A stretch of 29,742 nt of DNA from an uncultured Candidatus Poseidoniales archaeon (GCA_964645485.1 CAZXZO010000009.1:29612-59353), one strand, 5' to 3'. Shown: positions 21,227-29,742, counted from the first letter of the stretch. The notes: generated by a model not told the origin, from the sequence alone. Made by a program: numbers and translations.

Positions 21227-21238
21227 GCAGGTGAAATA

Positions 21239-21493
21239 ATGGTTGCCAACTCAATGATAATAATTGGCTGGCTGTTGATTGCAGTCATCGGAGTCGGTAT
21301 TGAATTGTTTAGACATCGAAGAAAAAAACAGCGGATAGCTACTGAAATGATTTCAAACCCTCTCATTGGTCAGTCATTCACGGTTATACAGTGTGTTCGT
21401 TGCCAGCATAAGTTTGAGATTTCTAAATCCGAGATGGCCTCACTTGAGTCTGGAAATGACCAGTTTGTGTCTTGCCCAAACTGTGGTAAGTAA
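21239..21493 (+). CDS. Small membrane protein with C-terminal zinc ribbon (CxxC-x23-CPxCG)
   Basis: TM MIIIGWLLIAVIGVGIELF, basic RHRRKKQR and CVRC...CPNCGK. SD AGGTGA at 21229-21234; starts 12 nt after the GH38 stop. Confidence 0.75.
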   Translation: MVANSMIIIGWLLIAVIGVGIELFRHRRKKQRIATEMISNPLIGQSFTVIQCVRCQHKFEISKSEMASLESGNDQFVSCPNCGK

Positions 21494-21504
21494 ATTTACC
21501 CACA

Positions 21505-21545
21505 ATTCACTTTTCCTGCTATTCAATTGCTGGCGAAAAGTGAAT
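21505..21545. repeat. Perfect 11-bp inverted repeat ATTCACTTTTC-N19-GAAAAGTGAAT (possible terminator or recombination/protein-binding site)
   Basis: Read directly. Begins 12 nt after the stop at 21493, and the right arm lies within the 23-bp direct repeat. Confidence 0.6.
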
Positions 21546-21555
21546 GGTAGATGCC
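21533..21555 (+). repeat. 23-bp direct repeat, copy 1 (GCGAAAAGTGAATGGTAGATGCC)
   Basis: Exact match to 24389-24411. Confidence 0.95.
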
Positions 21556-21730
21556 CGGATTGCATCGCGAAGCAAGGAGAAGAAAGTACAACTTTGCAAG
21601 ATTGATTAAATTTAAAAAACTTGTTCGCAACTGGATTGATGAAGGGATAAATTCACCAATATTTGTTATGGGATTATTTTGTTTGAAAAACCTACAAATA
21701 TGCAGATAAAGGGCAGAGCGGTACAAAAAT

Positions 21731-21994
21731 ATGAATTGGCATGAAGTTATCAAACAGGTTATATTAGTCATTGAGATAGCGAAGTTCATGGCCAAGAGTG
21801 TGTGGTTGACGATAATATTGATTTTGTTTCAATTTGTTATAATTTCAGAAATGGCTTTAGTGGATTTGAATGAGAAACCGATTGAACTTGAAACTTTAGA
21901 TTCAGAATTACTTTTCTCTTCAAATACCCTCCAAGCGAGTGGATTTGTGAATGGTACTTATTCAATGAATCCTCATGAGGTGGCCCTCGTTTGA
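21731..21994 (+). CDS. Small hypothetical protein with hydrophobic signal-like N-terminus
   Basis: 87 aa (68 aa from ATG 21788, MAKSVWLTIILILFQFVII). Its TGA overlaps the TTG of the next gene. May be a remnant. Confidence 0.45.
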   Translation: MNWHEVIKQVILVIEIAKFMAKSVWLTIILILFQFVIISEMALVDLNEKPIELETLDSELLFSSNTLQASGFVNGTYSMNPHEVALV

Positions 21995-24327
21995 ATTCAA
22001 GATCTAATTTGGGTCTATTCTTTTTTTTGATTTTGATAATTGGAATGCTAATTGGAGCAATTCCGATAAAGGTATGGGGTGAGGGAACTACTGACAATGG
22101 TGATTTTACTCCACAAGAATATTATGCAAATAATTTGAATATTTATTCTAAGTATTCACCGGCAATAATCAACCATGTCTACCCTACCGAAGACGGGGGT
22201 GAGTTGCTCTACATCGCGGCATATACTGGATTCAATTTCAGTGGGTCTTTGGTAGTTCCCGATAGTAATCCAGGTGGATTGTACTTGGCAAAAGTCAATG
22301 CAAACGGAGAAGATGAATGGGTGACTTTACTCACAAACCAATTTGACGAATTCGGGGTTTTCTTTGGAGAAGGGGGAATTGTCACTCATCCCACACAAGG
22401 AATTGTTGTGACAGGTTCAGATTATACAGTAAATGGGATGTTCAGGGGAGGTAGCCATATCAGTTTGGTAACTTGGGATGGTCAGTTGAAATGGACAATA
22501 GACTCTTCTTTTGGGCAAAGGTTTGTCACGGTGGACATTCAAGATGAGTTCGTCACTATCTTAGGTAGAACTGGATTATTCGACACAGCGTCGAATTGGT
22601 TACCGCCAATCACGCCACCTCTTCCAACTCTGAAATCTGCTTCATTATTGAGGTATGATATGGATGGGAATTTAATTGCAAACGTAACCTTTGCGATTAT
22701 TCGAACAGGTTCATGGTTTGGTTCGATGGATGATACATTGGTATTTCCATTTGGTGAAAACGAGTATCTGATTGACACAAGAGATTGTTGGAAAGCAACC
22801 AATGATTGTTTGGTAATCGATGATAGAAATGACCAAAATGAGCCGTCACTCATCTCCAATAACACTGAGTTAGTACGAATCAGGTTTGAAGATACGGATG
22901 GTCTCTTCATCTCGGATTTTTCCGAGACAGAATGTGAAACCAATTTTACAGAGATGACTTTGAGGTGCTCAGATGCTAAGTTCGAGTCACATATTGAAGA
23001 GTTGACCGGCAGACCAGGATATGACGGTCAAAGCGAGTTTGTTCGGCGGGAACTTTCTGAGGAATGGTTCAATAAAGTGACTATTCCTTGGATAAATGAG
23101 AGATTGACAATTGACAGAGTCTTCTTCGGGAATGATTCATCTCCATTCGATTTTCTCTTAACCATGACTTGTAGGGCGGAATGGGGTGGAGAGGTGGATG
23201 ATTGCCAATTGGGCGAGCGATTTCAGTTCAACCAATTAATTGTTGACCACACTGTCGTAGGTGTGCTCAAGGATGGAAATTTTACCCCGATAACTCTCTA
23301 TGGATATCCCGATTTGTGGACAAGAGGGGTGGTATTCTCAGTATTTTCAATTGAACAAGTCAATTCAACTACATACCTAATCCACGGCACACATTCCGGT
23401 TCAAATTTGTCAATACTTGGTCAGTTGTGGACTCCAGTAGACCCGGGCCCTGTTCGTTCATTTCGATTCCATGTTAATTTTGACCCAATTGTGAATGAGG
23501 AAGTTGAGCCTGTAATCCCAATAATCCCCGAAAATAATTCTACTGCTCCAATTATTGAGCCAGAAATTGAAATTCCGTGTGAAGAATGGACAAATGAGAG
23601 TAATTGCGCAATTCAAGAACCCATAGTTGAGCCTGAGTTGGAAGAAGAGGAGGGTGACAACCTGAGTTTGACAAATGAGCCCAGCCAAAACAATGACTCA
23701 GATGGAATCCCCCTCGTAATCGTTGCAGGGGCTGGTATTCTCAGTTTAGGAGTAATTATTTCTCGTAAAAGGGAATTAATCGCAGGTTTGTTCGGTGGTG
23801 GTCTGCTAGGGGTAATAGGCTCCAGAGCGCGAAAATATACTCCCGGTGTCAGGACATTAATCATTGATTTAATCACTTTTGAGCCGGGAATTCATCAGAG
23901 TGAAATTTGTAGACGGTTAAATTTGAGTAGTTCTCAGATTCAACATCATACTGAAATTTTGTTGCAAGAGGGTAGCATCCATCGACAAAAAAGTGGACGG
24001 AGGGTAACTTATTTCCCAATTAGTTTTGATGCCGAATTGAATGAAGAAAAGGTTTTGATTCCTACGGCTAGGGAAAATAATCTCGACACAAGAGAGAAAT
24101 TGATTTTATTGTTGCAAGAGAGTGAAAATCAGGGTGGATTTACTCAGCGTTTATTCGCTGAAAAACTAGAATGTAGTCAACCAAATATCAATAAACATTT
24201 ACAACGTTTACAAGATGAAGGAATAGCTAACAAACTTGAGAAGGTATGGGGTTTGACAGAAATTGGCAGCGATTTAGCCGAAGAAATAAAAGAAGAGCAT
24301 CATCTAGTTGAGGACATTCTCAATTAA
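21991..24327 (+). CDS. Membrane-tethered transcription regulator: signal, beta-propeller-like ectodomain, Pro/Glu linker, TM and two winged HTH domains
   Basis: TTG start with SD GAGGTG at 21977-21982. YLAKVNANG..EW / LVTWDGQLKW / LLRYDMDG blade-like repeats and TM GIPLVIVAGAGILSLGVII. wHTH1 RTLIIDLITFEPGIHQSEICRRLNLSSSQIQHH..IL..EG...GRRVTYF; wHTH2 TQRLFAEKLECSQPNINKHLQRLQDEG. Confidence 0.8.
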   Translation: MNSRSNLGLFFFLILIIGMLIGAIPIKVWGEGTTDNGDFTPQEYYANNLNIYSKYSPAIINHVYPTEDGGELLYIAAYTGFNFSGSLVVPDSNPGGLYLAKVNANGEDEWVTLLTNQFDEFGVFFGEGGIVTHPTQGIVVTGSDYTVNGMFRGGSHISLVTWDGQLKWTIDSSFGQRFVTVDIQDEFVTILGRTGLFDTASNWLPPITPPLPTLKSASLLRYDMDGNLIANVTFAIIRTGSWFGSMDDTLVFPFGENEYLIDTRDCWKATNDCLVIDDRNDQNEPSLISNNTELVRIRFEDTDGLFISDFSETECETNFTEMTLRCSDAKFESHIEELTGRPGYDGQSEFVRRELSEEWFNKVTIPWINERLTIDRVFFGNDSSPFDFLLTMTCRAEWGGEVDDCQLGERFQFNQLIVDHTVVGVLKDGNFTPITLYGYPDLWTRGVVFSVFSIEQVNSTTYLIHGTHSGSNLSILGQLWTPVDPGPVRSFRFHVNFDPIVNEEVEPVIPIIPENNSTAPIIEPEIEIPCEEWTNESNCAIQEPIVEPELEEEEGDNLSLTNEPSQNNDSDGIPLVIVAGAGILSLGVIISRKRELIAGLFGGGLLGVIGSRARKYTPGVRTLIIDLITFEPGIHQSEICRRLNLSSSQIQHHTEILLQEGSIHRQKSGRRVTYFPISFDAELNEEKVLIPTARENNLDTREKLILLLQESENQGGFTQRLFAEKLECSQPNINKHLQRLQDEGIANKLEKVWGLTEIGSDLAEEIKEEHHLVEDILN

Positions 24328-24388
24328 GGAGAAATAATCCTTGAACTATCCTCCGCCCCATTATACTATTTATTTTACATATAATCTT

Positions 24389-24411
24389 GCGAAAAGTGAA
24401 TGGTAGATGCC
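24389..24411 (+). repeat. 23-bp direct repeat, copy 2; overlaps the probable promoter of the DUF2817 gene
   Basis: Exact match to 21533-21555. Lies 20 nt upstream of GTG 24432. Confidence 0.95.
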
Positions 24412-24431
24412 GGCACTCGCAACAATTGGAA

Positions 24432-25547
24432 GTGGCTTCGGTGGTAGCGGATGATGTGTTATGGCGATATTTTTCTCCTGATTACGTAACTGCTCGTCAG
24501 CGTTTCCTTGACGCTGCTGAGAAGGCAGGAGCGAAAATCACATCCTTGCCGATTTCCGTACGCGGCCCTTCTGATGAAAACCTTACAATCGATATTGCCT
24601 ATATTGGTGGAGAGAAACCCTCACGAATGCTCATTCACACAAGTGGGGTGCATGGGGTTGAAGGATTTCCGGGGAGCGCAAATCAGGTTAGGATGTTAGA
24701 GCGTTTTTCAGCAGGAGAATTACAGATTCCTGATGATACAGGTTTGGTGGTAGCACATTCAATCAATCCTCATGGATTTGCTTGGCTAAGAAGAGTAAAC
24801 GAAAATAATGCTGATTTGAATCGAAATTTTCTACCACCAGGGGAGCCTTACGTGGGCGAGCCTGAAAGGTACCATGAATTGGATGGCTTCCTAAATCCAC
24901 GCTCTTACAAATCAACTTTTGACATGTTCACATTGAGGGCAGCATGGGTGATGCTAAAAATGGGATTCAATATTGCCAAGCAAACTATTGCTGAGGGTCA
25001 GTTCGAACGGCCAAAGTCGATGAATTATGGTGGCCACCAAATGTGTGAGGGGCCAAAACTTTGGTTAGAATATTTGTCAGGTGTGCTACCGAGTGTTAAG
25101 CGGGCAGTATGGCTTGATTTTCACACCGGATTGGGGCCATTTGGTGTTGATTCCTTACTTGTCTCAAATGAATTAGGTGAGGAGGCTTTCACGTCTCTCA
25201 CTGCACGTTATGGCTCAAGAATTCAACCATTAGACCCAGACGCTGGTGTTGCTTACCGTATACGCGGTGGAATGCTCGAAGGATTATCTGCACGATTTAC
25301 TGATATTGATTGGACATTGATTACCCAAGAGTTTGGAACTTACAAACCAGTCAAGGTGATCAAGACATTACGCGCTGAGAATAGAATGACTCAATGGTCG
25401 AATATAGGGAAGCGCGAAAAACTTCACTCGAAAGAGCGCCTAAGATTGGTGGAAATCTTCAGTCCTAATTCCGATAAATGGCGAGGAATGATAATGGATA
25501 GAGGCCAAGCGCTGATTGATGATGCTTTGGCTGATCTCAGCGATTGA
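24432..25547 (+). CDS. DUF2817 / M14-like zinc carboxypeptidase
   Basis: SGVHGVEG (HxxE), RRVNENNADLNRNF (R..N R) and DFHTGLG (third Zn ligand). Start uncertain (TTG 24387 or GTG 24432/24441/24456). Confidence 0.85.
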   Translation: MASVVADDVLWRYFSPDYVTARQRFLDAAEKAGAKITSLPISVRGPSDENLTIDIAYIGGEKPSRMLIHTSGVHGVEGFPGSANQVRMLERFSAGELQIPDDTGLVVAHSINPHGFAWLRRVNENNADLNRNFLPPGEPYVGEPERYHELDGFLNPRSYKSTFDMFTLRAAWVMLKMGFNIAKQTIAEGQFERPKSMNYGGHQMCEGPKLWLEYLSGVLPSVKRAVWLDFHTGLGPFGVDSLLVSNELGEEAFTSLTARYGSRIQPLDPDAGVAYRIRGGMLEGLSARFTDIDWTLITQEFGTYKPVKVIKTLRAENRMTQWSNIGKREKLHSKERLRLVEIFSPNSDKWRGMIMDRGQALIDDALADLSD

Positions 25548-25619
25548 GTTATTCGTGACACTTCTTTATTCACCATCGTTCCAATCTTTACTAATATGAG
25601 GCAGATATGAGAAACAGTC

Positions 25620-27080
25620 ATGAATGCAATATTGAAGTGTGTTATGATTAGTTTTATTGTGGCGTTAATGGTATTGACGATCGGCAGTGAAAATGTAGAT
25701 GCTGAAAGCCATCCCGAAGCAGATTGGCATTATTCAGAATGTGATGATTTCCCAAGACTGTTGATAAACTATTCAATTTCAAATGGGTTACTAAGTTTTA
25801 ACTTAGATCAATGTCAACAAGAATATATTGAATACGACTCCTTGATTCTCGTTGATACTTTAACAGGTGATACAGTAGTACATCTTGATGTTCAAGAAAC
25901 ACAATTTCAGGTGAACACAAATAATGTTTACAGAGTTTGTCCAGGATTTTACCAATCAATTGAGGAGGGTCAACAACCGTTGTATTGTTCGTATCCGTTT
26001 AGTGCAAACTCATTAAGTTATGGACATCATTCTGGAACGTGCTCCGGAATGGACTTCAATAGAATTGAAACACTGAATAGTTTACCAACTTCTTCAACTA
26101 TCTCTACTTTATGGGGAACTCATTGTTTTGCACCATTGTACGAGGATTACCAATCTAGTATTATGGATTGGAATCATGATTGGCTAGACTCAACATGCCA
26201 GCCATTTGCGCAATTGGGTTGTTCTGAAAAATGGAATGCCGAAATTGAGGTACTTTCTTATGGTTATGGGAATTCAGGGTTCAACCAAGTTGAACATTAC
26301 TCCAATAAAAACACAGATACTTTATTTGATGATTCAGCAAGCGACAATCAACCATTAAGTTGGGACTCGGGCCCTCATTACTTGAATCAATATGGAGAAA
26401 TTGGTCGTTGGCAGAGTGCAATAATGACAAGTGAATATTTCAATGGGATTGTTTGGTTTCAAGATGCATATCAATTTAATTTCTTAGATAGGGCCCCACT
26501 TTTTGATATGGCCTTCCACCCAAATGTGGCGCCATCAACTTACGTTAATACACCTTCATTAGAAAATTTGTACATGACCGGTTCAACCGATTATTTATGC
26601 CAATTTGTTGAACCGTTCGTTGTAACGGATGGATTTGATAACTCTATTTTAAGAGGAAAAGGCTCATCGACTATATCTTGGAACTTGTACAATTCTGAAG
26701 AACAGTTTTCAATCGAATTTTCCAAACCTTCAGTTTGTAGAACCCGTTACCGATGGGTTCAAATTGACGTGTCTTGGGATATTGATTACTACGACGGTAA
26801 TGGATTCTCTAATCTCCTATCCTCATCAAATAGTTACAATTGTGGTTTCTCGCAAAATTCTTGTATTTATGTAGAGCCAACTTTAGTTTTAGGAGGGGGG
26901 ATACAGCCGATATCCAGCCAATCAGGTACTGTAGTAACCTTCAATTCAGGTGGGGCACCTGTATATGATGTGGAGATTACAATTGATGCTTATCTTCGCC
27001 AATGGATAATTGGTACCTATAACCATGTTCTATTAGACCACGAGCAAGCAATATTAGGTTCTCAGGTGATGATTCTTTGA
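25620..27080 (+). CDS. Hypothetical secreted Cys-rich protein
   Basis: Signal-like MNAILKCVMISFIVALMVLTIGSENVDA, 12 Cys in the mature part and no clear C-terminal TM. Its TGA overlaps the TTG of the next gene. Confidence 0.65.
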   Translation: MNAILKCVMISFIVALMVLTIGSENVDAESHPEADWHYSECDDFPRLLINYSISNGLLSFNLDQCQQEYIEYDSLILVDTLTGDTVVHLDVQETQFQVNTNNVYRVCPGFYQSIEEGQQPLYCSYPFSANSLSYGHHSGTCSGMDFNRIETLNSLPTSSTISTLWGTHCFAPLYEDYQSSIMDWNHDWLDSTCQPFAQLGCSEKWNAEIEVLSYGYGNSGFNQVEHYSNKNTDTLFDDSASDNQPLSWDSGPHYLNQYGEIGRWQSAIMTSEYFNGIVWFQDAYQFNFLDRAPLFDMAFHPNVAPSTYVNTPSLENLYMTGSTDYLCQFVEPFVVTDGFDNSILRGKGSSTISWNLYNSEEQFSIEFSKPSVCRTRYRWVQIDVSWDIDYYDGNGFSNLLSSSNSYNCGFSQNSCIYVEPTLVLGGGIQPISSQSGTVVTFNSGGAPVYDVEITIDAYLRQWIIGTYNHVLLDHEQAILGSQVMIL

Positions 27081-28618
27081 AAACTGGAGTAGTTGTTCTT
27101 TTACTCGCAATCACCATTGCTGGAATTGGTGCCGTTCTATTCTTCTCATCTTATCCCAATCAACAGGTTTTCCCTGGTAAAGACCATAATGATGGGGTAC
27201 TTAGGGAAGGAGTGTTTCAGAGATGTTTTGATGCAAATGAAAGTCGACCAGAATTTCTTTATTTTACAACCTGGAAATATTCAACCAGTAGTTATCTTCC
27301 AATGGGTTATAGAGGGTATCTAGTCACAAATAATAGTTCCTTAACTGACAATGAAGAACTTGTAGTTAGAGGTGCGGGACGCGCCGGAACCCATGACAAA
27401 TTAAAAATTGTAGAAGGCGAGATAACACAATACGAGAAGGCAAGTCCATATCTTGGTTCAAAATCTGATTTGGAAGAATATAATCATAGAAGTATTATTA
27501 GCATCCCGGATGAAAATCATTTTTGCCTTAGTATATGGGTTGTAGGGGGAAAAACGTCGATGGTGGAAAATATAACAACAGGTTGGGAAAAATTGGCGGA
27601 TCTTCACATTGAATACTTTGATTATCAAGTTAATCAAGGAAATCTGACATGGGATAGAAGGATTTCTGTAGGGGATAATGGGGTCGTTGGATTCCCGGAC
27701 AATCTTGGTAATGTGACATATTTATTCACTACATCAGAGTACACACCTGGTTGTATTGAAAGGCTGAATACTTCTGGGAGTTCGGACCAATATTGTTCTC
27801 CTAATTATGATAAGTTTGAAGGTGGTGAACTTTATACAGGTGTATTCTATCATTCAACGAATAATCATCCCACTTTGATAGATCTCAATCATAGTGGTGA
27901 CTGGAGACCCTATGTGGTTTGGTACGATTCAAATCAATGTGCTGAAGGTAGGTGTACCGGAGAAGCACTTTCCGATATTAATTATCTTGAAAATAACCCA
28001 TTTATGATTGCATTAATAATAAGTTCTCTTTCAGTCACGACATTTGTCGGTTTAATTGTAATTGATCAGCCAAGTAGGGTTGGTTTATTTAGCCGAATTT
28101 CAAAACTTGCTTTCATTGGTATTGTCGGCAAATCTGAGACAGCAAAAGGCCGAGAAATAAGAATGGTTATTGAAGAATTTATTCTGAATCACCCTGGTAC
28201 GTTTTACAACGAGATTGTAGGATTACTTGGATTGGGAATGGGACAAGCGAGTTATCACCTTCATAAATTGGAAACTTTCGGTTTAATCTGGTCTCAAAGA
28301 TTTGGCCGTCGTTTATGTTACTTTTCTTCCACTATCCCTAAATCCGGTGAAGCAGTAGACGACATTCTTCTATTATGTGAAATGAAAGAAATCGATCGTT
28401 CAATTATCCAATTCACTCGCGAATCAGGCCCAATAGAAAGTCGTCAAGTCGACCTTGCGAAGTTACTGAATGTCAGTCAACCAACAATTAGTAGGTCATT
28501 AGAAAGGTTAGAGGGATGGAAATTAATTGAGTTGGAATCGGTTAATTCTCACTTTTTCAGATTAGGACTATCAGAACAGGGTAATTCGTTTGTGAAATTT
28601 CTTAATCCAATTAACTGA
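27077..28618 (+). CDS. Membrane-tethered transcription regulator: N-terminal TM/signal, glycosylation-sequon-rich ectodomain, TM and two winged HTH domains
   Basis: TTG start with SD AGGTGA at 27064-27069 and TM FMIALIISSLSVTTFVGLIVI. wHTH1 RMVIEEFILNHPGTFYNEIVGLLGLGMGQASYHLHKLETFG...GRRLCYF; wHTH2 RQVDLAKLLNVSQPTISRSLERLE. Confidence 0.8.
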   Translation: MKTGVVVLLLAITIAGIGAVLFFSSYPNQQVFPGKDHNDGVLREGVFQRCFDANESRPEFLYFTTWKYSTSSYLPMGYRGYLVTNNSSLTDNEELVVRGAGRAGTHDKLKIVEGEITQYEKASPYLGSKSDLEEYNHRSIISIPDENHFCLSIWVVGGKTSMVENITTGWEKLADLHIEYFDYQVNQGNLTWDRRISVGDNGVVGFPDNLGNVTYLFTTSEYTPGCIERLNTSGSSDQYCSPNYDKFEGGELYTGVFYHSTNNHPTLIDLNHSGDWRPYVVWYDSNQCAEGRCTGEALSDINYLENNPFMIALIISSLSVTTFVGLIVIDQPSRVGLFSRISKLAFIGIVGKSETAKGREIRMVIEEFILNHPGTFYNEIVGLLGLGMGQASYHLHKLETFGLIWSQRFGRRLCYFSSTIPKSGEAVDDILLLCEMKEIDRSIIQFTRESGPIESRQVDLAKLLNVSQPTISRSLERLEGWKLIELESVNSHFFRLGLSEQGNSFVKFLNPIN

Positions 28619-29586: not shown

Positions 29587-29616
29587 GTTTTCTCGGATTT
29601 TAGTAAGGGTTGCATC

Positions 29617-29742
29617 ACTGCCAACTGAGGCAATCAATTTTGGTAACAAAAACCGTGTAAATCCAACCCTTCTTAATCAGTAGGATTACTGCCAACTGAG
29701 GCAATCAATTTTGGTAACAAAAACCGTGTAAATCCAACCCTT
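29617..29742 (+). repeat. Exact 55-bp direct repeat (29617-29671 and 29688-29742, period 71) running to the window end
   Basis: ACTGCCAACTGAGGCAATCAATTTTGGTAACAAAAACCGTGTAAATCCAACCCTT occurs twice. The preceding bases differ (C vs T). Confidence 0.95.

Follow-up and report, generated by a model that had tools for sequence, protein, structure and literature searches.

Membrane-anchored tandem winged-helix proteins in partner-coupled cassettes of a Poseidoniales archaeon: candidate one-component transcription regulators

Poseidoniales are among the most abundant archaea of the surface ocean, and none has been cultured. A 29,742-nucleotide (nt) stretch of an uncultured Candidatus Poseidoniales genome (GCA_964645485.1 CAZXZO010000009.1:29612-59353, hereafter the window) raises the question of whether two of its genes encode receptors that connect the outside of the cell with the chromosome within a single chain. 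Open reading frame (ORF) A (21991..24327, + strand; 778 aa) and ORF B (27077..28618, + strand; 513 aa) are both intact, and each encodes a membrane-anchored protein with a tandem of winged helix-turn-helix (wHTH) domains. In the best-supported reading, A and B are membrane-anchored one-component transcription regulators of the transmembrane transcription regulator (TTR) class. We put the probability of this reading at roughly 0.6, and we infer DNA binding, sensing and partner interaction.

Architecture and topology of the two proteins

Alignment of A with B by BLASTP returned a single matching part, A residues 573-741 with B residues 311-479 (26% identity, E 1e-9), and no ectodomain alignment for the N-terminal 570 and 310 residues. 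The shared block is C-terminal and consists of a transmembrane (TM) helix, a short Gly-rich juxtamembrane helix and two wHTH domains. Pfam, hydropathy, BLASTP and AlphaFold2 (AF2) agree with the original prediction that both proteins run in the order ectodomain, TM, Gly-rich segment and two wHTH domains, with unrelated ectodomains. In hydropathy profiles (averaged over 19 residues), each protein has an N-terminal hydrophobic segment and one TM, which is flanked by acidic residues on its N-terminal side and by basic residues on its C-terminal side. The first segment of A, a candidate signal peptide or N-terminal anchor, spans residues 8-26 (22012..22068; all parts of A and B given here are on the + strand), with a Kyte-Doolittle (KD) value of 2.71, a basic residue upstream and an AF2 helix at residues 4-22; that of B spans residues 5-23. 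The predicted TM helix covers residues 572-590 in A (23704..23760; KD 2.43, three acidic residues before and three basic after) and residues 308-328 in B (27998..28060), where the AF2 helix has these limits and the hydropathy span is 311-329 (KD 2.47).

The region between the two hydrophobic segments is strongly acidic in both proteins (88 D+E vs 28 K+R in A). The ectodomain of A (residues 28-500, 22072..23490) holds 8 Cys in four close pairs and 13 N-x-S/T sequons, and it is joined to the TM by an acidic, Pro/Glu-rich stalk (residues 501-571, 23491..23703), probably disordered, with a predicted local distance difference test (pLDDT) of 25-39 and no secondary structure. The orphan, beta-rich ectodomain of B (residues 24-307, 27146..27997) has 6 Cys and 8 sequons, and these numbers, like the four Cys pairs of A, match the earlier counts. 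The cytoplasmic part of each protein has 2 Cys and 1 sequon. Since hydropathy, charge, Cys and sequon features all point the same way, and with the AF2 helices as a further basis, the large domains of A and B are predicted to lie outside the cell and the wHTH tails inside. AF2 modelled the A ectodomain as all-beta with moderate confidence (block pLDDT mostly 55-86). Foldseek returned 195 matches to this ectodomain at E<=1e-3, and all among the matches listed are beta-propellers, as the earlier description of it as propeller-like had suggested. Seven of its eight Cys are invariant across the three orthologues of A. The B ectodomain has no confident fold (low AF2 confidence) and gave no usable lead in the ESM Atlas.

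The Gly-rich hydrophobic segment recurs throughout the family as a juxtamembrane element directly after the TM. The order of the motif is TM, a short polar stretch (often [NST]-E-x-[LI]-R-x-P), a hydrophobic Gly-rich helix of 12-15 residues (for example A-G-L-W-L-L-G-L-V-G in the core paralogue of about 900 aa) and basic residues, and about ten residues further on wHTH1 starts with R-G-R-I. The helix corresponds to residues 596-610 of A (23776..23820), by alignment to this motif, and to residues 332-345 of B (28070..28111), where it conforms to the motif and is a separate short helix in the AF2 model. Because basic residues flank the segment on both sides in A and B, its most likely position is the inner face of the membrane; the helix may serve in packing against the TM or in oligomerisation.

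The winged-helix tail and its family

The first wHTH domain matches PF24266 (HTH_HVO_0163_N) above the gathering cut-off of 31 bits in both A (residues 620-681, 46.4 bits) and B (360-419, 35.2 bits). With the AF2 models its limits are set at residues 618-676 in A (23842..24018; H-H-H-E-E, pLDDT 87-95) and 356-417 in B (28142..28327; pLDDT 94-97). A second wHTH of the ArsR/MarR type is matched in Pfam at A 717-751 and B 456-489, within domains spanning residues 700-755 of A (24088..24255; HTH_69/HTH_5, pLDDT 86-96) and 425-498 of B (28349..28570; aligned by VIA-align to MarR-family wHTH domains). The Pfam MarR_2 cut-off of 27 bits is also passed, by A with 31.2 bits (623-669) and by B with 27.9 bits (456-489). 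In the full-length AF2 folds, for which the input was the own orthologues of each protein and about 28 short family members aligned to the C-terminal module only, both wHTH pairs are confident (pLDDT 86-97), and the C-terminal domains thus model as the winged helices they had been taken for.

Structural comparison places wHTH2 of B close to MarR-family DNA-binding domains (VIA-align Z-score 11.6-12.2, root-mean-square deviation 1.5-1.9 Å over 75-79 residues), including Escherichia coli MarR bound to operator DNA. These matches span only the winged-helix core of about 77 residues within chains of 140 aa, and the second wHTH stands in place of the dimerisation helices. The matches of wHTH1 are extended winged-helix and Z-alpha domains. 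When the profile of the module was compared with the Protein Data Bank (PDB), wHTH1 matched a 'putative DNA binding protein' (5duk, 5e-9) and wHTH2 matched ArsR/SmtB/HlyU/AdcR repressors (1e-6 to 1e-5). In addition, the ArsR-type pattern S-Q-x-x-[ILV]-x-x-H-L-x-x-L occurs in the recognition helices of both domains in both proteins. The sequence signatures of the module point to repressor families.

The module is widespread. It was found in all 31 genomes searched in the order, mostly with 3-8 matches each, and of 101 Thermoplasmatota genomes 85 carry it at E<=1e-12, with as many as 24 matches in a genome; among the best non-Poseidoniales matches, those listed, about four fifths lie in open frames of 400 to 2,290 aa. 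A profile search of 1.84 billion representatives gave 12,682 clusters at E<=1e-3, of which 5,487 reach E<=1e-10, and in the best 150 clusters the module is almost always C-terminal. The database names are 'hypothetical protein', 'predicted transcriptional regulator' or similar, from Poseidoniales and other Thermoplasmatota. We sorted 153 module-bearing proteins into architecture classes by hydropathy: 69 have an N-terminal hydrophobic segment, an N-terminal region of >100 aa, a TM and the module, 10 share this layout with no N-terminal segment detected, 30 have a short N-terminus followed by TM and module, and 27 are short soluble forms. Many of the short database forms are contig fragments of long ones, for example P0008, which is 95% identical to A.

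The N-termini of the family are diverse, with 102 N-terminal regions of at least 80 aa falling into 52 BLAST clusters. Their Pfam content includes BsuPI, Big_7/Big_9/Cadherin_5/CARDB, FG-GAP, PQQ-propeller with PKD, and TSP3, and many have no match. In the module tree, ectodomain types mostly track module clades, and the few types that recur separately do so on long branches, so that the diversity of outer domains appears to be old and not the product of frequent swapping. The original idea of a conserved output paired with swappable sensors is thus sustained as regards the variety of ectodomains, but not as regards exchange on a short timescale, since types follow clades and it is the whole cassette that seems to move. 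A recent tandem duplication with a swapped ectodomain was also considered as the origin of A and B and was rejected, given the low identity of the two modules and the greater closeness of each to its own orthologue; in the module tree, A and B are about as distant from each other as from four other paralogues in the genome.

Six genes of this genome carry the full module: A, B, a 921-aa form (contig C11), a 233-aa form, a soluble 190-aa form and a 169-aa form. The genome is 82% complete and encodes about two likely histidine kinases and four receiver domains, vs these six module genes. If the module proteins are regulators, the family would probably be a main route coupling the outside world to transcription in Poseidoniales, and in Thermoplasmatota generally. 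The 921-aa gene belongs to a form of about 900 aa that is present in all three families of the order and in all 31 of its genomes that were searched. This paralogue (BsuPI-like repeats, TM and tandem wHTH) has the module and the juxtamembrane motif in common with A and B; it differs from them as a core gene with no partner gene, whereas A and B are genus-restricted, accessory and equipped with other ectodomains. A 400-aa HATPase_c protein, a probable histidine kinase, is encoded about 0.9 kb upstream of it (C11:15702-20613).

The soluble 190-aa paralogue (contig C29) has counterparts of 188-203 aa in relatives, and its existence as a stand-alone cytoplasmic protein argues that the native compartment of the module is the cytoplasm. 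Its gene lies 190 nt downstream of one for a 1,085-aa signal-peptide protein (C29:10660-14679), where the module would be linked to a surface protein without fusion. The 169-aa form (contig C1) begins exactly at the juxtamembrane helix. It appears to be one part of a split paralogue of about 306 aa (C1:81761-82830), in which a 181-aa TM protein and the 169-aa module ORF lie in different frames, separated by 15 nt; in relatives a single frame of 302-309 aa encodes the protein, and several relatives' frames of this and a similar paralogue have '1 TGA' within the match.

Partner genes and cassettes

B is preceded by the gene of a secreted, Cys-rich partner (25620..27080, + strand; 486 aa, 12 Cys after the signal peptide), with which it forms cassette 2. 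The partner has no Pfam match, an NCBIfam match far below cut-off and no usable lead in the ESM Atlas. In cassette 1, A follows a partner stub of 87 aa (21731..21994, + strand). The TTG starts of A and B both overlap the upstream stop as TTGA, with an AGGTG-like, ribosome-binding-like motif a few bases upstream, in line with the two-gene arrangement proposed earlier. The stub aligns with a 462-aa partner in genome G001 over its N-terminal ~69 aa (65% over 68 aa) and its C-terminal ~17 aa (47% over 17 aa), and by this comparison is the remnant of an in-frame deletion in a partner of about 460 aa that kept the TTGA coupling to A. In G001 the 462-aa protein, which is 24% identical to the partner of B over 399 aa (E 3e-4), is directly followed by an A orthologue of 795 aa, and this cassette is surrounded by unrelated genes. 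In the sister genome G011, a 42%-identical partner, a B-like gene and the same GHMP kinase gene occur in the order seen in the window.

A search with the partner profile revealed two more family members in this genome, of 546 and 517 aa (C2:31910-35439, - strand, and C37:4077-7132, + strand). The gene after each encodes a type-I membrane protein (622 and 501 aa, respectively) with a signal peptide and a C-terminal TM, and the pair on C37 overlaps by 4 nt. Among 121 genomes of the order, the partner family was found in three, all of this genus.

In G011 the DUF2817 gene starts 9 nt after the stop of the GH38 gene; in the window about 3.2 kb lie between them (21227-24440), made up of a small TM/zinc-ribbon ORF, the stub and A. 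A 26-nt direct repeat (21530..21555 and 24386..24411, + strand; 25/26 identical, 2,856 nt apart) brackets the stub and A. Relative to G011, cassette 1 is thus, as judged by alignment, an insertion. The DUF2817 gene between the cassettes (24387..25547, + strand; PF10994, 275 bits) probably has its true start at a GTG at about 24441, by comparison with G011, and the right copy of the repeat lies just upstream of this probable start. The zinc-ribbon ORF (21239-21493, 84 aa) has a TM helix at its N-terminus and a CxxC...CxxC zinc ribbon at its C-terminus; neither the G001 nor the G011 locus has a counterpart of it, and elsewhere in this genome there is a single, weak second match (contig C4). Its first codons (M-V-A) resemble the start of the G011 DUF2817 gene.

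At cassette 2, the flanks of this genome (G000) and G011 are 82-92% identical, vs 28-42% for the cassette proteins and 30.5% for the cytoplasmic module. As the low identity extends to the cytoplasmic module, replacement by an old, divergent allele fits better than selection on the outer face alone. The regions upstream of cassette 2 in the two genomes share only a small motif on alignment. The G+C content is 38-43% across 21-29 kb vs 44-52% in the 20 kb upstream, and this low value over the two cassettes fits foreign or fast-turnover DNA.

The ectodomains are rare. That of A was found in 1 of 200 other genomes of the family, and word-based homologue searches gave only two other clusters; a genome-contig scan with A matched only the G001 contig, a viral-contig scan found no relative, and the metagenomic orthologues include P0005 and P0006. 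Between A and its orthologues the ectodomain is 46% identical and the module 73.5%, indicating that the ectodomain evolves faster. The B ectodomain had no homologue in a word search of 5.8 billion proteins and was present in 1 of 150 other genomes of the order, in a protein 31% identical to it. On these comparisons both cassettes are accessory, being apparently genus-restricted, the one a predicted insertion and the other a highly diverged allele at a conserved site. The mobile unit in this genus would then be the whole two-gene cassette.

Candidate functions and known systems

If A and B are regulators, the two wHTH domains of one chain could pair as a built-in pseudo-dimer on operator DNA at the membrane. 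The secreted partner would bind the ectodomain as a co-component, like ToxS, TcpH and VtrC, and a ligand or partner bound on the outside would alter how the receptor oligomerises, how it is oriented or how stable it is, and with that transcription. Probable targets would be the cassette itself and perhaps the genes for glycoconjugate utilisation nearby. Such a scheme would allow proteolytic release of the tail but would not require it.

Several findings weigh against regulators of this kind. Searched with the whole tandem unit, Foldseek returned ScpB, ESCRT-II, Rpc34 and SelB among its matches. Binding of proteins or of RNA is another known role of tandem winged helices, and these matches mean that the fold by itself is no proof of DNA binding. 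The NCBIfam ArsR/SmtB model NF033788 has a cut-off of 55 bits, and both A (34.4) and B (35.7) fall below it, whereas it is passed by the paralogues on C11 (62.5 bits) and C29 (59.1 bits). Across the family the ectodomains resemble adhesin or surface modules (PKD, CARDB, Big, FG-GAP), not classical small-ligand sensors. The type-I membrane proteins on C2 and C37 have no wHTH tail, which makes the tail optional for the function of the outer pair. Two further points may indicate decay: cassette 1 has lost its partner to a stub, and a single in-frame TGA interrupts the B-like gene of G011 (contig C59, L038 775-2385, - strand). Of the two ORFs that result, one (286 aa) covers the ectodomain, and the other (242 aa) has an ATG of its own and encodes a TM, the juxtamembrane helix and both wHTH domains. 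The TGA could mean that the gene is split, that it is a pseudogene or that the sequence contains an error.

The original prediction had raised intramembrane proteolysis at the Gly-rich segment as a possibility. In such a mechanism the protein would stay inactive at the membrane until a signal set off cleavage in or near the TM or this helix, and the freed tandem wHTH would go to the nucleoid, as in SREBP or anti-sigma cascades. A helix-packing or helix-breaking Gly-rich segment is indeed conserved right after the TM throughout the family, site-2 protease (S2P, M50) and rhomboid genes are present in the genome, and the module from the juxtamembrane helix onward also forms separate genes, as on C1 and in G011. 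However, the segment lies on the cytoplasmic side of the basic stop-transfer residues, outside the bilayer core, and the proteases belong to housekeeping families found in 14 of 14 control genomes and are encoded on other contigs, unlinked to A and B. The bacterial TTRs ToxR and CadC work while membrane-bound (PMC10269533), and many of the short forms are, like P0008, mere pieces of long ones. We found no specific support for the segment as a cleavage site, and regard release as an unlikely mode of action and this part of the prediction as not upheld. To the same low degree we would credit surface or adhesion proteins whose tandem winged helix anchors them to a cytoplasmic partner or the nucleoid, or handles DNA at the envelope, with no role as a transcription factor. 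The protein-binding ScpB and ESCRT-II among the top Foldseek matches would suit such a role, as would the adhesin-like ectodomains, the tail-less partner cassettes and a hyper-divergence typical of exposed surface proteins; but sequence profiles match DNA-binding repressors (ArsR/SmtB, MarR, HlyU) instead of ScpB or ESCRT-II, A and B each retain the ArsR-type recognition-helix signature in both domains, and the soluble stand-alone paralogues resemble ordinary regulators.

A more speculative view, in our judgement less probable than either of these, is that partner and receptor pairs are genus-specific, mobile, hyper-divergent two-protein cassettes for surface recognition (of self and non-self, viruses or particles), some of which captured a tandem wHTH tail that reads a polymorphic surface contact onto the chromosome. 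If true, this would be a non-kinase pathway from receptor to DNA with an allelic diversity comparable to that of kin-recognition loci. Least probable among the alternatives are accessory genes in decay, recently acquired and heading for loss with no current function. The stub, the TGA in G011, the rarity of both ectodomains and the lower regional G+C could all be taken in this sense, but both frames are intact over 778 and 513 codons, the A orthologues preserve the ectodomain Cys and the module as described, and the deletion in the stub is in frame, with the TTGA coupling to A preserved.

One-component regulation from the membrane has clear precedents. TTRs are defined as proteins with a DNA-binding domain and at least one TM region in one chain, and a survey of 404 archaeal species found 1,384 of them, spread over 367 species at about 4 per genome (Demey, Gumerov, Xing, Zhulin & DiRita 2023, PMC10269533). 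By their predicted two wHTH domains and one TM each, A and B fall under this definition. The survey is generic and computational, Thermoplasmatota are absent from its main text, and it singles out neither the family of A and B nor the type-I orientation, tandem wHTH, juxtamembrane motif or partner gene seen here. It also describes the co-component systems ToxRS, TcpPH and VtrAC as an established bacterial pattern. ToxR/ToxS, TcpP/TcpH, VtrA/VtrC and CadC resemble A and B in having an outside domain, one TM and a cytoplasmic winged helix in one chain. Unlike A and B, which have an N-terminal ectodomain, a C-terminal tandem of ArsR/MarR-type wHTH and an upstream partner gene, ToxR, TcpP, VtrA and CadC carry a single N-terminal OmpR-type wHTH and a C-terminal sensor (N-in), with the partner gene downstream. 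Several ToxR-type regulators need a co-transcribed periplasmic partner; the upstream partner of A and B is unrelated in sequence to ToxS, TcpH and VtrC. Pfam and NCBIfam gave no Trans_reg_C match in A or B and no sequence relationship to the ToxR/CadC type.

Among archaea, ArnR and ArnR1 of Sulfolobus acidocaldarius are experimentally studied membrane-bound regulators (cited in PMC10269533). They are like A and B, if the latter are indeed regulators, in acting on transcription from the membrane. ArnR and ArnR1 have an N-terminal HTH and C-terminal TM helices, with no large ectodomain. Hybrid two-component sensors of Bacteroidetes combine a propeller sensor with histidine kinase, receiver and AraC domains, whereas A and B have no Pfam match to HisKA, HATPase_c or Response_reg. 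The likeness to HVO_0163 of Haloferax volcanii, listed as an ArsR-type transcription protein that is up after hypochlorite stress (PMC10294847), concerns wHTH1, as the Pfam model PF24266 covers a domain of 70 residues only. Our literature search returned nothing on the family of A and B, on Poseidoniales membrane regulators or on PF24266 beyond this one mention of HVO_0163. The earlier statement that no such system has been characterised therefore holds for experimental work, but not for the class, which has been surveyed, nor for wHTH1, which has a Pfam model: the class is known computationally, and the family is catalogued and, as far as the literature found goes, experimentally unstudied. 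The novelty lies in the form of the cassettes, which are coupled to a partner, restricted to one genus, mobile and highly diverged. Such cassettes are compact experimental targets, with two genes, a soluble fragment predicted to bind DNA and a secreted partner.

Two smaller observations concern the surroundings. PADLOC returned only generic wHTH (Csa3-type) matches on the region, which gives no defence-system assignment. A 63-nt unit occurs twice at 29609-29742, downstream of the GHMP kinase gene (copies 95% identical, period 71 nt), and this repeat runs past the right edge of the window.

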